Assembly (NCBI GenBank): GCA_951406725.2
Contig: OX597821.1
Span: 68,262,001-68,326,000 of the forward strand
Origin: Octopus vulgaris
Taxonomy: Eukaryota
Reading direction: 5' to 3'
Length of the DNA stretch: 64,000 bases
Below are positions 12,795-63,400 of this stretch, one piece after another. The first letter of the stretch is position 1; each line of letters starts with the position of its first letter. Position numbers and translations under genes: made by a program. The notes beneath the pieces are model-generated. The model was not told the origin of the DNA. It searched no databases and was given only the letters and a program-made list of their open reading frames with translations.

Positions 12795-14104
12795 TTCATA
12801 TATACTTCAACAAAATCTAAAAATTATTAGCTGTTGATATTTACTTGGCTGCTAAAAAGAAAGCATTAGTAAATGCGTCGCATGCATCTATTACAGTTCC
12901 ATACTCAGAACACGTTATATACTTATCTATTCACTTATAAAAATAACTAACTGGTGTTCAATATCAGATCTTCAGTATCATAAGTATAAAACACACTTAT
13001 GTAAAAAAAAAAAGATACTAGTTAATGTTTTTTTATTGTTGATTACTGAACGCATTTTTCAATATGCGAACTTCTTTCAGAGAATGATAAATATATTTTC
13101 AACAAGTGTAACCATATTTAAAATACCACAATTCCTATCGATGTAGGTGTGCTCAAGAATTCATTAATACTGATATTTTGTTCAAAATTACAAACGGCTT
13201 AAGATACATTCGGAGTAGAGGGTGATCAGTAAGAATATTTTAAAACACAAAATGTAAAACGAAATATATGTTGTGATGTTCTATAAAGTCTAAATATTCG
13301 TTTCAATGTTGCCAGAATTACGTGAACAAATCATAAAAACGGAGAGGATTTATGCGATATTAATTATTTAAAAAAATGTCAGGCATGGAAAACAATATAC
13401 AAAACAAATGAATTGAGAGACCAATCATTTCGGTCCAATGAAAGAACACCACAGATTCGAGATAATCGTAACTACTAAGAGCGAATGTCCTCTTATAGTT
13501 GTATTCTCCGGTTTATGGGCGGGCTCATGTGTGAGAGTAGACTCATTTGATCAGGTCATAGACATACAACTCGCACAATCTTTCAGCAAATCTACTTTTG
13601 CACTTGGTCGTGTTTTTTGAGAAAATTAAATCAGTTAAATACGAATGGTAACACAACATTGTTGAAGCAGAAGAGGTTGGAAGCCGGGAGAGCTACAAGG
13701 CTGAGTAGAAAGAGAGAGAAAAGCGATAGAGCAGAGAGTGAGAGACAGAAGGGAAGAAAGAAAATCATGACAAAGAAAGAGGAACCAAATAAGTCACAAC
13801 ACTTTACACAACAGGGCGATATGTAAGAAAATGGTATTCGTCGGGAGCACTGAGGGATGAAATTCGGCACAAATAAAGAGACAAAACAATATTTGGAAGA
13901 AAAGAAAAATACCCTTCATCAGCTGATTCTCAATGAATTTTCCCGGTTTCGACACCTTAAACAGTTCGAGTATCTAGTGGCGTCAACAACTATTAGATCC
14001 GCAGGGAGGTAATGACATAGTGAAAATATAAGATACGAAATACAAGTTAATATGTAGTTATGTGTTAACGATTGGAATAGAGAAAACACAAGGTTATGCA
14101 TGAC

Positions 14105-14408
14105 TATAGGATTGCACCTAGAAAGTTTCCCTCCAAGGCACAAGTCCTGCAATGTTGTTTATGGAAGCCCAGCAGTCGCCCATGTATAGAGCCTCCCCTC
14201 CTAACGTCAGTGATGTTATCCAAGGAAGGTAAAGGCTGATACAGCATGGCACCAGTGACGTCACAACTAATTTCTACAGCTGTGTAAACTGAAACAGCGT
14301 AGAATAAAGTGTCTTGCTCAAGAACACAAAACATAAACCGGTCCAAGAATTGAACTTACTACCTCATGATCTTGAGCCCGACACTCTGACCACTGAGTCA
14401 TACGCCTT
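14105..14408 (-). mobile_element. SINE family D (tRNA head plus CORE-like block)
   Basis: Minus strand reads GACTCAGTGGTCAGAGTG...GAGTTCAATTC...TTCTTGAGCAAGACACTTTATT. Homologous to 61176-61500. Confidence 0.88.
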
Positions 14409-14498
14409 CACAAAAAATTAAGACTAAGCAACTGTATAATTAATGCATGATGATTTCACAATGATGCGAGTTTTGAATTAAGCACAAAGAATGCGCCA

Positions 14499-14622
14499 CG
14501 GGCATATGGTGTAGTGGTTAAGAGCGCGGGCTACTAACCCCAAGGTTCTGAGTTCGATTCCAAGCAGTCACATGAACAACGACAACAACAACAACATTAT
14601 ATTAATAATAATAATAATGATG

Positions 14623-14698
<76 letters not shown>

Positions 14699-14846
14699 CA
14701 TCGAAAAATACCTTAGGAATGAGAACCCAGGTTCGAAATTTCCCCAAGACACCTGATGAAGGCTGGAGGGTAAATCAGCTGAAACGTGTTAACAACAAAC
14801 AAGATGAGGACAAATATCCGTCAAATGTAAATAATGTAAAGGATGT
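14499..14846 (+). mobile_element. tRNA-headed SINE with (AAT)n spacer and an HHR-like 3' module, flanked by a 13-bp TSD
   Basis: A box TGGTGTAGTGG and B box GAGTTCGATTCC; gacac-CTGATGA-a-ggctg/cagct-GAAA-c-gtgtt at 14748-14790; flanks AAAGAATGCGCCA (14486-14498) and AAAGAATACGCCA (14847-14859). Confidence 0.8.
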
Positions 14847-15416
14847 AAAGAATACGCCAATTTTATAGGTAGGCTGAGATAAGATTATTCATCATGAAAC
14901 TCTACTCGGAGTTCATCGGCCCCATGGATTTCTTATACAGGTCTCGGCACGAACAGCAATGTCAACTGACAATGAAAATACAGGATTTCTAGTCATGTTA
15001 AGCTGAAAAATAACTTGGCGGGAAACTACTGCTGTATTGGCATAGTTGATTTTTGTGCGAGAGTAAATTGATGGGAAACTGAGAAATGTCTAAATTTTGC
15101 AAAGATTCTGAATAGAATTCAATTTAACAGCGCTTAAGTTGCGGTTATGTTATTAAACTTAGCTGCTCTTATATCACTTGACAGGTGGAGTTCTTCCTAC
15201 CCACATGAGTTCAGACAATACTAAGTTGATAAGATATACCTACGCACACAAACATAGACAGAATTATATCTAGACATATATATACATTTACAGATATGTA
15301 CATAAACATAGACGCATACACACAATCACACACACATTAATAAAAATAGCAAACACACACATATATATATATATACACACATTATATTATACATGTATAT
15401 GTATATGTAGATGTGC

Positions 15417-27872: not shown

Positions 27873-28561
27873 ATAGTGACCACTCTCTTATATTTATTTT
27901 GTAAAAATATTATAATATGTTATAAAATATTATAATAATCCAGGTTTCTCGTAGCACTAGGCCACTTGGTGTTGAATAAATATACTATTAAATTAGTATC
28001 TAATTCTCTCACCCTTATTAATTAATTATAATTATGCTGCATTTATTTCTAAATGCTGTATTTGTTTTCCGTGAAAGTTTGGCGCGCTGTTGGTTGGGGC
28101 ATTTGAATTATAACGTCGGATGTAATCAATTGAACCACACGCGTATTTATCGTTATGGTAAAATCTGGCGTGTGATTGAGTGGATTTCATCAAGATAGTC
28201 TTGGCTGACGAGCTACAAATGGATTTTTTTGTAAGTAATATTACATTTAATTCATTAATAGCGAAACAATTGTCCCAAAATAATCTGTATTTTTGTTATT
28301 TTTTATTTGCCCTGTCCGTGTGAGCTAACAGTCGTACTGGCTTTCATGGGAAACATGTATTTTCGTGGTTGAAACCTTTTAGATTAACTGGTGCTAGAGT
28401 GAGCAATATAGTGACCACTCTCTTATATTTATTTTGTAAAAATATTATAATATGTTATAAAATATTATAATAATCCAGGTTTCTCGTAGCACTAGGCCAC
28501 TTGGTGTTGAATAAATATACTATTAAATTAGTATCTAATTCTCTCACCCTTATTAATTAAT

Positions 28562-47426: not shown

Positions 47427-48274
47427 CGCGGTTTGATCAATAAGTATCCGGACTGTTGCCATAGTAATATAGCTAAAGCACGCTTGGCACAGATTAACCG
47501 TGGACTCTACTGTGCATGCACACTAAGTTTTAACGTTCTAGCCCACTTTCACCGTATACAGGAGTGATTGAAAGGAACGTGTGTAGCGTGTGATCGTCGC
47601 ATTGACCATGACAGAGAAATTTGTCATGGCAATAACTGCTCAGAGACCTACGCAAATTTGCAGAAAGTGTATGGAGAGGAGTGTATGAGCTGCTCACAAG
47701 TGTACGAGTGGTTCAGACGTTTTCAGGATGGCCGAAAAAAATGTTGATAGTGAGAACTGTGAAAAACATTGCAGATATGCCTGCAGCTGTACGGGGAAAT
47801 TGTCGGATCACCATCCATGAGTTATCATAGGATATGCAGATTAGTTACGGTTCAGTTCAGTCCATTATCATTGAAGATTTGGGTATGAGACTCGTGTCTG
47901 CCAAATTTGTGCCAAAACTGCTTTCAGCAGACCAAAAAGCACATGGGTTTCGGTTACACAAGATCTTGATTGTGTAAAGAACAATGAAAACTTTTTGAAA
48001 ATTTTGCGTAGGCCTCTGAGCAAGTATCGCCAAGCTTTTGGCAAAATTGAATGCAGATTCTCTGCTCAACTCTCTGCCATGGTCAATACTTCGATCACAC
48101 GCTACACATGTTCTTTCCAAGCACTGCTGTAAACAACGGAAGTGAGCTAGAACGTTAAAACTTAGTGCGCATGCACAACAGAGTTCAAGATCGATCTGTG
48201 CCAAGCGGCTTCACTCTGCGTGCTTTAGCTTCGTTATTATGGCAACAGTCCGGGTACTTATTGATCCGACCTCG
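47427..48274 (+). mobile_element. Non-autonomous mariner derivative with ~190-bp inverted ends and a decayed transposase N-terminus
   Basis: Ends ...GATCAATAAGTATCCGGACTGTTGCCATA / TATGGCAACAGTCCGGGTACTTATTGATCCGACCTCG-TA. Translation includes ETYANLQKVYGEECMSCSQVYEWFRRFQDGR and ISYGSVQSIIIEDLGMRLVSAKFVPKLLSADQK (mariner HTH and WVPHEL-like linker). Confidence 0.9.
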
Positions 48275-50991: not shown

Positions 50992-51851
50992 TGTCATCGT
51001 CATCAGGATTGATTCAAATAATAGTCCAGATTATCTTGAAGATCTACCCACCGTCTTTGGCAAGAAAGAACGGTTAGTTTACTCTAATGGGTGCCCATAG
51101 CGAAGACGGTTGGTTGGCAATAAAAATATTTAAGGACAGTGTTTCTTCCCTCCTCCACTAACCTCTTCAACCAATTGAAGAAGAAGGCGAGAGTGGGGAG
51201 TGATGCTCTGCCCTCCAGTTTTTACGAAATATGGGTGATAGCGATAACGTCGACCAGGTTAATTGGGACTACTATGATAAAGTGGCCCTAAACAAACTAC
51301 AAGAAACTATGAAAAAGCCCTTTTTTTTTTTTTTGGTGCTTTAGAGTAATCCAGAGGTTTTTGCAAAGGATGACCCAAATTAACCTAGGTGCTTTATTTT
51401 ACCTTTTTAAAGATTTTTTTCTTTCTCCTAATGGAGAACTTATCTTGCAGACATTGTAATCCAGTGTTTTTGTGGAATTCGCCTTATTACTCGAACAAAA
51501 TTCCTACTGCTCTCGTGTTTCTTCATTGTACAGCCCCAGGATCATTTATGACCAATAAACGGAAATTAATCAAATAAAATACCTGATGGTATTTATTCTG
51601 ACACTTTACGGTTTAAGGTCAAATCCTACCAAAGTCAGCTATACCTTTCATCCTTCCAGGGTCGATGAAATAAAACAGCAGCCAAGTACTAGAGTCGGTA
51701 GTGTTGACTGTTTCTTTCCCCAACAAAATTTGAGGTTTCTGCCTATGTAAGAAATTGTTATTAGTTGACGGTGGTCGGTACTGCAGTGAATGTAAGTAGG
51801 TAGAGTATATACTATATGTATGCATGTGTATATACTATATGTATGCATATG

Positions 51852-52173
51852 AAGGCGTGTGGCTTAGTGGTTAGGGGCATTCGGCTTATGATCGTAAGGT
51901 TAGGAGTTCAATTCACGGCGGCACATTCTGTCCTTGAGCAAGACACTTTATTTCACGTTGCTCAAGTTCACTCAGCTGGCAAAAATGAGTAGTACCTGTA
52001 TTTCAAAGGGCCGGCCTTGTCACACACTGTGTCACGCTGAATCTCCCCGAGAACTACGTTAAGGGTACACGTGTTTGTGGAGTGCTCAGCCACCAACACG
52101 TGAATTTCACGAGCCAGCTGTTCCGTTGATCGTATTAGCTGGGACCCTCGTCGTCGCAACCGACGGAGTGCTC
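51852..52173 (+). mobile_element. Chimeric SINE: family D-like head and core joined to a family C 3' half
   Basis: CTTGAGCAAGACACTTTATTTCACGTTGCTC is followed by GTACCTGTATTTCAAAGGGCC...GACGGAGTGC. Confidence 0.85.
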
Positions 52174-61175: not shown

Positions 61176-61500
61176 GACCCCCTTCCGTCATGACTGACCA
61201 TGGGATTGCACCTAGAAATTTACCCTCCGAGGCACAAATCCGGGCAAGGTTGTTTATGGAAGACCAGCAGTCGCCCTTGCATACCGACCTCCCCCACTCC
61301 ACGCCACCAGTGTTATCCAAGGGAATGGCAAAGGCTGATACAGCTTGGCACCTGTGACGTTGCAACTCATTTCTACAGCTGAGTGAACTGGAGCAACATG
61401 AAATAAAGTGTCTTGCTCAAGAACACAACACGAAGCCCGGTCCGGGAATCGAACTCCCACCCTCGCGATCGTAAGTTCGACGCTCTAACCACTGAGCCAT
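61176..61500 (-). mobile_element. SINE family D
   Basis: Minus strand TGGCTCAGTGGTTAGAGCG...GAGTTCGATTCCC plus a CORE-like block. Confidence 0.9.
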
Positions 61501-61799
61501 ATAGGTATGTGTGTGTATGCATATGTGTATATATGTATATATATATATGTATATGTGTGTGTATATATTATACATATATATAAATGATACATATATACAC
61601 ACATATGCATATATTATACATATATGTGTGAGTGTATGTATATATTATACATGTATATGTTATATATATATATATGTATATATATTATACATATGTATGT
61701 ATGTATGTATGTATGTACAAAAAAATCTTTTAAATCAGTCCAAACATTTGTGATATTTTCGATTTGTAAAATTCCATTTTTTTCTGCAATTTGTCATGG

Positions 61800-62418: not shown

Positions 62419-63109
62419 CATACATACAAATACATATACATATAATACTCAACATGAACATACATATATATTGTGTATGTGTGTGTGTGTGCGCATGTGT
62501 CTTCGTACCAGAGTTTGTCCCCCACAACTGTTTGACAACTGATGTTGGTTTGTTTTCGGACTCGTAACCTATCGGTTCAGCAAAAAGAGAACGACAGAAT
62601 AAGTAGCAGGCTTTAAAATAAGCAACCTGTCGATCCGTTCGACTAAAATTCTTCAACGTGGTGTCGTGGTGCACCAGCATGGCCGCATGAAGACAACACT
62701 ATGCAAGTTATAAGAAATACTTTTACCTTCTATTTCAGTGGAGCTAGGACCCTTTCGGCCCTGAAATACTTTTAAAAAAAGGGTAAAAGTACGAACCATC
62801 GACTTGTTTTACTTTTCATAACTAAGCCGACCACCTAGCAGAATTGACATCGCGTCGAACAAAATGTTTAGCGGTATTTCTTCCGGCTCTTAACGTTCTG
62901 AGTTCAAATTCTCCCGAGGTCGATCTTGGCTTTCATCGTTTTGGAGTCGATAAAATAAGTACCAGTTGGACACTGGAACTGATGTAATGGACGTGCCCCT
63001 CCTTTAAAATCGCAGACCTTGTGCTAAATTTTAAAGCCATTATTTCTTACTACTTGAATGTTTCAGCTTAATAAAAAAGATTAAAAACACTTATACATAT
63101 CAGACGTAA

Positions 63110-63400
63110 AGGCACGTGGCTTAGTGGTTAGAGCAGCGGACTCGCGGTCGAGGGATCGCGGGTTCGAATCTCAGACCGGGCGATGTGTGTGTTTATAGGC
63201 GAAACACGTAAGCACCACGTGACTCCGGAAGAACTACTGCTGACTCTTTCGCTACAAGTTACTCTCAATCCTTTCTCCTGCATCGAGTAAATCACCCGCG
63301 ACGGACCGACATTCCATCCAGGTGGGGAACCTATGACGCCAATGAAACCGGGAAACCGGCCCATATGAGCCAGGTATGGCTAGAGAAGGAACAAACAACA
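63110..63400 (+). mobile_element. SINE with a family C head and a different 3' module
   Basis: TGGCTTAGTGGTTAGAGCAGCGGACTCGCGG...GGTTCGAATCTC, then GACGGACCGACATTCCATCCAGG...GAAACCGGCCCATATGAG and a (CAA)-rich tail. Confidence 0.8.

Follow-up and report, generated by a model that had tools for sequence, protein, structure and literature searches.

SINE-like elements with a hammerhead ribozyme, called Sm-alpha and Sj-alpha, are known from Schistosoma, where they were reportedly described by Ferbeyre in 1998 and Laha in 2000. Later papers present them as tRNA-related SINE-like elements that carry a hammerhead (PMC6765202, PMC2770079, PMC8490949). Penelope-like elements (PLEs) have minimal hammerheads, which sit in their pseudo-LTRs and are characterised by a nucleotide placed between 9 and 10.1, a G10.1-C11.1 pair, a palindromic 15.2-16.2 and a short stem I; single minimal PLE hammerheads showed no cleavage (Cervera and de la Pena 2014, PMC4209133). 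In PAc, a Poseidon PLE of the anole, the hammerhead lies upstream of an AC-rich stem-loop with two internal start sites of reverse transcription, and the span between these starts makes up an optional tail of 30-40 bp. Hammerhead mutants of PAc insert normally, and its cleavage needs protein (Frangieh 2024, PMC11167929). Craig et al. describe the tail as a PLE feature that is absent from LINE TPRT and PLE target-site duplications (TSDs) as variable (PMC8557442). PLE enzymes have been proposed to serve non-LTR retrozymes, which consist of tandem units with circular RNA intermediates (PMC7229834; bioRxiv 10.64898/2026.07.22.740005), and non-autonomous Chlamys derivatives such as MRC1 (PMC8557442). 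SINEs are described as borrowing the enzymes of LINEs via a common 3' end (PMC4824008). In the genome of Octopus vulgaris PLEs make up 6.83% and SINEs 11.6%, and of the 900 SINE families that were recently active 893 have no classification (PMC13282606). The octopus SINEs OR1 and OR2 are cited as CORE-SINEs (PMC4758252, PMC4824008).

In this paper we describe a short insertion in a stretch of 64,000 nucleotides of O. vulgaris DNA, which we call the window. The insertion is a decayed member of an Octopus repeat family of very high abundance, which has a PLE-type hammerhead throughout and PLE-like ends and is SINE-like in the copy of the window. Ohshima and Okada are said to have described three octopus tRNA-SINEs in 1994, the third of them named OK. 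Our element shares the genus and the tRNA-derived head with these, and the family may be one of the three and may already have a name.

As far as the cited passages describe them, Sm-alpha and Sj-alpha share with the octopus element the tRNA-related Pol III head, the type I hammerhead and the high copy number. Sm-alpha is described as often tandem, with multimeric RNA from which an active ribozyme releases monomers (PMC6765202), whereas the octopus copy is single, begins with its head and is flanked by a TSD; it also differs from Sm-alpha in its minimal PLE-type motif and its PLE-like optional tail. With the minimal hammerheads of PLEs and with PAc, as described in those papers, it has in common the bulged nucleotide before stem II, the G10.1-C11.1 pair, the palindrome, the short stem I, the AC-rich region downstream and a tail of about 30 nt. 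Unlike PLEs and PAc, it has neither an RT/GIY-YIG ORF nor tandem pseudo-LTRs, but it possesses a Pol III head, and its 5' edge is fixed at a microsatellite; its stem II is also shorter than that reported for Schistosoma PLEs. The element is non-coding like the retrozymes and MRC1, for which the available text mentions no tRNA head (the word tRNA has no occurrence in that of bioRxiv 10.64898/2026.07.22.740005).

Layout of the element in the window

The element at 14486..14859 is composed of a tRNA-like head, a microsatellite and a minimal hammerhead module with a tail, all between the two copies of a TSD. Its features are as follows.

14486..14498, plus strand: 5' TSD of 13 bp, identical to 14847-14859 in 12 of 13 bases
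14499..14574, plus strand: tRNA-like head with type 2 Pol III A-box and B-box and an anticodon-arm-like hairpin
14575..14695, plus strand: (AAC)n/(AAT)n linker; a similar microsatellite lies ahead of the module in other copies
14696..14747, plus strand: 5' part of the high-copy 3' module, from contig placement and the translations of other copies; probably derived from a PLE pseudo-LTR
14748..14790, plus strand: minimal type I hammerhead with stem I, CUGAUGA, a bulged A, stem II and GAAA
14791..14846, plus strand: AC-rich stretch and AATGTAAA-type repeats, forming the short 3' end
14847..14859, plus strand: 3' TSD, with AAAG microhomology to the tail repeat
14861..14864, plus strand: the first run of T4 that follows the head, beyond the element; a candidate Pol III terminator

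The two TSD copies enclose 348 bp, and the 13-mer has no third site within one mismatch in the 64 kb window. When the 3' zone was shuffled 2000 times, a match of this grade was obtained twice; it was also obtained in 18 of 720 real zone pairs of the window, which is rich in repeats. Given this number of real zone pairs, the duplication carries weight because it lies flush with the start of the head and the end of the tail. The first-pass annotation had named A and B boxes, hairpin, microsatellite, core, stem I, tail and duplication, all of which we find at 14486-14859, and its view that they were inserted as a single unit agrees with the flush duplication. The tail unit AATGTAAAG is repeated 3.3 times at 14824-14853. 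No second copy of the module was found by BLAST within the 64 kb window. The module frame has no Pfam match; a 117-aa frame across the module was considered as coding and rejected, as it is of low complexity and was equally open in 415 of 5000 shuffles, which is not significant.

The A-box of the head is found at 14507-14517, the B-box at 14552-14561 and the hairpin GGG-CTACTAA-CCC at 14528-14540. The combined A- and B-box pattern occurs four times in the window against a mean of 0.03 in shuffles, which bears out the proposed Pol III-type head. Over its full length the head can be aligned with four further SINE-type heads from the window, and neither the boxes nor the C-T in the anticodon-like loop vary among them. 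ARAGORN did not call the head a tRNA at the default, 90% or 80% thresholds and gave a different, poor fold only at 70% or below; Rfam made no tRNA call for it either. The stretch from 14499 to 14860 is free of T4. Alone among the heads of the window, that of the element passes directly into a microsatellite, and this microsatellite and the hammerhead module occupy the place of the body that the other SINEs of the window share.

Other SINEs are found close by. A different tRNA-headed SINE lies some 75 bp upstream at 14093-14411 on the minus strand; its head faces that of the element and its tail points away. Related copies are at 61187-61507 (79% identity over 315 nt) and 51850-51993. We assume that it may be a CORE-type octopus SINE. 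A further A/B-box head at 63109-63190 (plus strand) has a different body and represents another SINE family.

The microsatellite consists of (AAC)7.3 at 14575-14596 and (ATA)32.3 at 14599-14695. Contigs of the family were placed on 14688-14870 and so cover the module and not the head; they are silent beyond the microsatellite. Among the 24 loose contig ends listed of 753, on which all our statements about loose ends are based, the 5' end lies at 14697 in all four runs and reads (AAT)n(AAC)n. As this fixed edge reads microsatellite and none of the 3' loose ends listed is (AAT)n, the microsatellite looks like a part of the element and not of its target. The head is joined to the module in one copy, that of the window, where both lie inside its TSD. 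In P0004, a diverged copy with 58 aa of upstream sequence, nothing upstream resembles the head.

In the hammerhead of the window copy the core is at 14753-14759 and is followed by the extra A at 14760. Stem II pairs 14761-14765 with 14776-14780, the GAAA is at 14781-14784, and stem I pairs 14748-14752 with 14786-14790. Both stems are present in the minimum-energy fold, with pair probabilities of about 0.8 for the motif alone, and of about 0.25 for stem I and 0.5 for stem II in the whole transcript. In this copy stem III is short of 3 nt, the cleavage site or triplet is missing, and a G-U stands in place of the G10.1-C11.1 pair of the family. A relaxed hammerhead descriptor matched twice in the window, at the element and weakly at 28205, against a shuffle mean of 0.07. 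The weak match (28205-28280, plus strand) has 4-bp stems and long linkers and is likely due to chance. The fold of 14690-14850 is no more stable than those of shuffles (z -0.51). Rfam gave no hammerhead model match and nothing at the gathering threshold; the sub-threshold snoRNA and miRNA matches are irrelevant.

Abundance and consensus of the family

Contigs were placed on 14688-14870 in all four runs (17,737, 24,063, 14,720 and 3,619), which carry three organism labels. The module or a part of it is found in 20 of the 24 runs listed, with at least half of its words in 18; two insect-metagenome RNA runs with fewer than 5 module words were counted as no evidence. The ratio of peak depth to single-copy depth in three runs would put the family roughly between 5,000 and 190,000 copies, depth not being a copy number. 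A phmmer search gave 12 matches, of which 11 are translations of other copies (52-73% identity) and one is unrelated. P0005 (2124 aa, with repeated matches) was set aside as unrelated. Two of the module matches are UniRef entries of Octopus bimaculoides, which gives the genus to which the family belongs. One such entry, P0001 (A0A0L8FK86), is a WD40-repeat gene model that opens with 17 residues translated from the module; the match corresponds to 14719-14769 of the window and ends at a GT in loop II, and this start is either an exonisation or a gene-model artefact. P0004 and P0006-P0013, in contigs of about 1-2 kb where these were looked up, are diverged relatives of the module with 45-62% identity in the alignment. 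One of them is preceded by (ATG)n-like codons, and together they suggest subfamilies of greater age in which the linkers or heads differ.

The window copy departs from the majority at three places, which are 14773, 14780 and a 3-nt gap after 14785. At 14773 in loop II, T makes up 94-98% of the family depth. At 14780 a T>C change in 72-75% of the depth restores the G10.1-C11.1 pair. The loose-end consensus before 14786 ends GAAACGTT in all four runs, with 48-261 contigs per run and an agreement of 0.71-0.83, and the depth drops about fourfold at the gap site. Among the 11 translated copies 9 are without the gap; P0007 shares it, and P0009 has the Cys codon and is without the next. The 3-nt insertion was scored as a gap in only about 4% of the local depth, where short contigs are clipped. 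Our reading of the majority, GAAA-CG-UU followed by stem I, is therefore based on the loose ends, the depth trough and the 9 translations, and not on gap scoring. The first-pass annotation had found stem III about 3 nt too short and had proposed to check whether other copies restore GAAA-CG-UU. Most of them do, by these three kinds of evidence, and the shortening is a real gap that is peculiar to the window copy when compared with most other copies.

The family majority hence possesses the CUGANGA, GAAA and UH core together with stems I and II. The listed features of minimal PLE hammerheads are found in it, namely A14760 between positions 9 and 10.1, the G10.1-C11.1 pair, the palindromic 15.2-16.2 and the short stem I; the only exception is stem II, with 5-6 bp compared to 7-8 bp in the Schistosoma PLE motifs. 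Apart from this length, the earlier description of the motif as PLE-type is upheld, and the 3' module likely comes from a PLE. The free position N7 is the only non-CpG core site that varies at 3% or more (T>A in 12-17%, all runs). At 14757, the free core position, a T>C change reaches 11% of the depth in X14, the only run of organism B, against 0.1-0.2% in the other three, which suggests a lineage-specific subfamily. Of the constrained non-CpG C/G sites 0 of 14 reach 3%, while 11 of 26 do so elsewhere (p 0.004, or 0.035 inside homopolymer runs). This result is close to the 3% threshold, is confounded by homopolymer runs and disappears when single bases are compared (0 of 9 and 1 of 10). It is a hint of constraint in the source elements and no more than that. 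The CpG of stem III has decayed in 10-17%, compared to 10-19% for CpGs outside the motif, and so the ordinary copies are not selected as ribozymes.

As in the anole PLE, the module has first the hammerhead and then the AC-rich stretch; the short end lies some 55-60 nt beyond the cut site and the long end about 30 nt further on. The family thus has two 3' ends about 30 nt apart, and the window copy belongs to the short class. In all four runs the listed loose ends at 14837-14847 continue either with extra AATGTAAA repeats or with a common extension of about 30 nt. This extension is translated in P0002 and, by eye, appears to be present in P0007 with a shifted frame. An optional tail of the PLE kind, here about 30 nt long and present in part of the copies, is seen in the four runs as well as in P0002. 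In the tailed copies the AATGTAAA repeats are subterminal, whereas the repeats of LINE tails are not. The flanks that the listed 3' loose ends enter are long and mixed (for the DNA runs, with a median of up to 255 nt and an agreement of about 0.45), and among the 15 joints listed of 81 there is no strong head-to-tail joint.

Mobilisation of the element and competing explanations

The explanation that we favour, and which we hold to be as probable as all others together, is a Pol III SINE that is mobilised by a PLE from uncut RNA. Transcription by Pol III would proceed from the A and B boxes across a body that has no T4 and on into T runs of the flank. The RT/GIY-YIG protein of the PLE would then bind the 3' module and nick AT-rich DNA, and reverse transcription would have an internal start in the RNA, at one or the other of two sites that are separated by about 30 nt, which would lead to tail-less copies, such as that of the window, and to tailed ones. 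The productive template would be uncut, since cleavage would leave promoter head and priming end on separate pieces. As a monomer the hammerhead would be nearly silent, cutting only as a dimer via the palindromic stem III or with the help of protein, and might therefore mainly be an inherited part of the protein-recognition module. Inserted copies would decay neutrally. A more specific version, to which we give slightly less than an even chance, is that of a major Octopus SINE with thousands to more than 100,000 copies, tRNA-headed and PLE-mobilised by internal initiation, whose source elements would keep an intact hammerhead as a switch, gated by dimer formation or by protein, that can destroy the transcript.

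The first-pass annotation had offered two readings, a SINE partnered with a PLE or a Pol III-driven ribozyme RNA, and had called both unusual. For the PLE-partnered SINE, the TSD-bounded unit, the Pol III-type head, the PLE-type hammerhead and the optional tail of about 30 nt stand, while protein searches did not find an autonomous PLE with the module. The single copy with a linked head and the short stem II also count against it, and the tandem-repeat end, the junction microhomology and the 13-bp TSD would equally fit TPRT of the RTE/CR1/L2 type. The ribozyme RNA is a weak reading, since the motif is of the type that is inactive as a monomer, the window copy is defective, and decay at the CpG of stem III is like that at other CpGs. 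As regards novelty, the literature searched contains no report of an octopus hammerhead SINE or of a PLE-partnered SINE, most subscription papers and the repeat databases Repbase, Dfam and SINEBase being outside this search; the available text of the octopus repeat and SINE papers PMC13282606, PMC8967140, PMC9115989, PMC4758252, PMC4824008, PMC3531059 and PMC10886601 holds no such element. The combination of a tRNA-SINE with a hammerhead is less unusual than had been claimed, as it is known in Schistosoma.

The search for a partner was at the protein level and in collections with few octopus entries, so its blank result is weak. Word searches of proteins for an autonomous PLE with the module gave no candidate at 64-205 aa, and the one longer match is the WD40 gene model. 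The phmmer matches likewise contain no PLE partner, as the translations of copies are short or non-PLE. A search of viral contigs with P0002 gave 5 pattern matches, none of them confirmed. No RT or GIY-YIG was detected by Pfam in the 140 of 148 window frames scanned, and a minus-strand frame search aimed at proteins across module and head gave 36 candidates, none of which scored. The exact module pattern is absent from the viral contigs and prokaryote genomes searched, and blastn of the module against phages and plasmids gave nothing. A lone exact-pattern match in a metagenome lies inside a bacterial coding region and reads as chance. Elsewhere in the window, 47568-47744 (plus strand) is a Tc1/mariner transposase remnant (HTH_48, E 1.6e-10), the only Pfam match among 142 sequences scanned.

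A LINE might have mobilised the element instead. In this case a tRNA-SINE would have captured a fragment of a PLE pseudo-LTR as its body, the hammerhead would be a passenger, and an RT of the RTE/CR1/L2 type would prime on AATGTAAA. We consider this unlikely. In its favour, the window copy has a tandem-repeat 3' end with microhomology to its TSD, the tails of SINEs usually come from partner LINEs (PMC4824008), RTE, CR1 and Dong-R4 LINEs are reported as active in O. vulgaris (PMC13282606), and no PLE partner was found in the protein searches. However, many copies run past the repeats with a common stretch of about 30 nt, for which an optional PLE tail is a better explanation than a terminal LINE repeat, and there is little room 3' of the hammerhead for a separate LINE-derived tail. 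Less probable still is that the family is a headless end-piece or non-autonomous derivative of a PLE, and that the head is a local one-off join made when the module inserted into the (AAT)n tail of a simple SINE. PLEs favour AT-rich or microsatellite targets according to PMC11167929 and PMC8557442, the head linkage is seen in one copy only, and P0004 has no head-like sequence upstream. Against such a join, a single TSD encloses both head and module, the head runs straight into the microsatellite as no other head of the window does, and the listed loose ends share one microsatellite 5' edge at 14697 in the four runs and have 3' ends that are not (AAT)n.

The complete core and the palindromic stem III of the family could also belong to a system similar to Sm-alpha or the retrozymes, for which there is precedent (PMC6765202, PMC7229834, bioRxiv 10.64898/2026.07.22.740005). 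Dimeric hammerheads in tandem source arrays would then cut out monomers or circles that are reverse transcribed, and the dispersed copies would be dead offspring. We think this improbable. The window copy begins with its head, where a cut monomer would begin at the cleavage site; it stands alone between its TSDs, with no tandem arrangement in the window, and rare arrays elsewhere are possible; and the listed 3' loose ends lead into mixed flanks and not into a next unit, in line with the listed joints. Finally, the hammerhead likeness might be a chance feature of an ordinary SINE body, as might be supposed from the missing Rfam hammerhead match, the lack of a folding excess and the second match of the loose descriptor at 28205. 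This seems to us very improbable, because the family majority is a better hammerhead than the window copy at both of its defective sites, the variable core position is N7 and the descriptor expectation is 0.07 per window.

Meaning for SINEs and Penelope-like elements

The kinds of element that come closest, a tRNA-SINE with a hammerhead in Schistosoma and non-autonomous PLE derivatives, are already known. What would be new is a SINE driven by a PLE, and the chances of this appear to us about equal either way. If it is true, a dispersed Pol III SINE would have a PLE as its driver, which would add a new class of autonomous partner for SINEs. The module of 150 nt would then offer a natural outline of the minimum that a PLE protein requires for binding and priming, requirements that have been addressed in vitro for one element (PMC11167929). 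It would also bear on the function of PLE hammerheads, which is described as an open question in PMC8557442. Should a LINE be the partner, the element would be a more modest addition, namely an octopus counterpart of Sm-alpha. The family may furthermore serve to classify a sizeable share of the unclassified SINEs of O. vulgaris.
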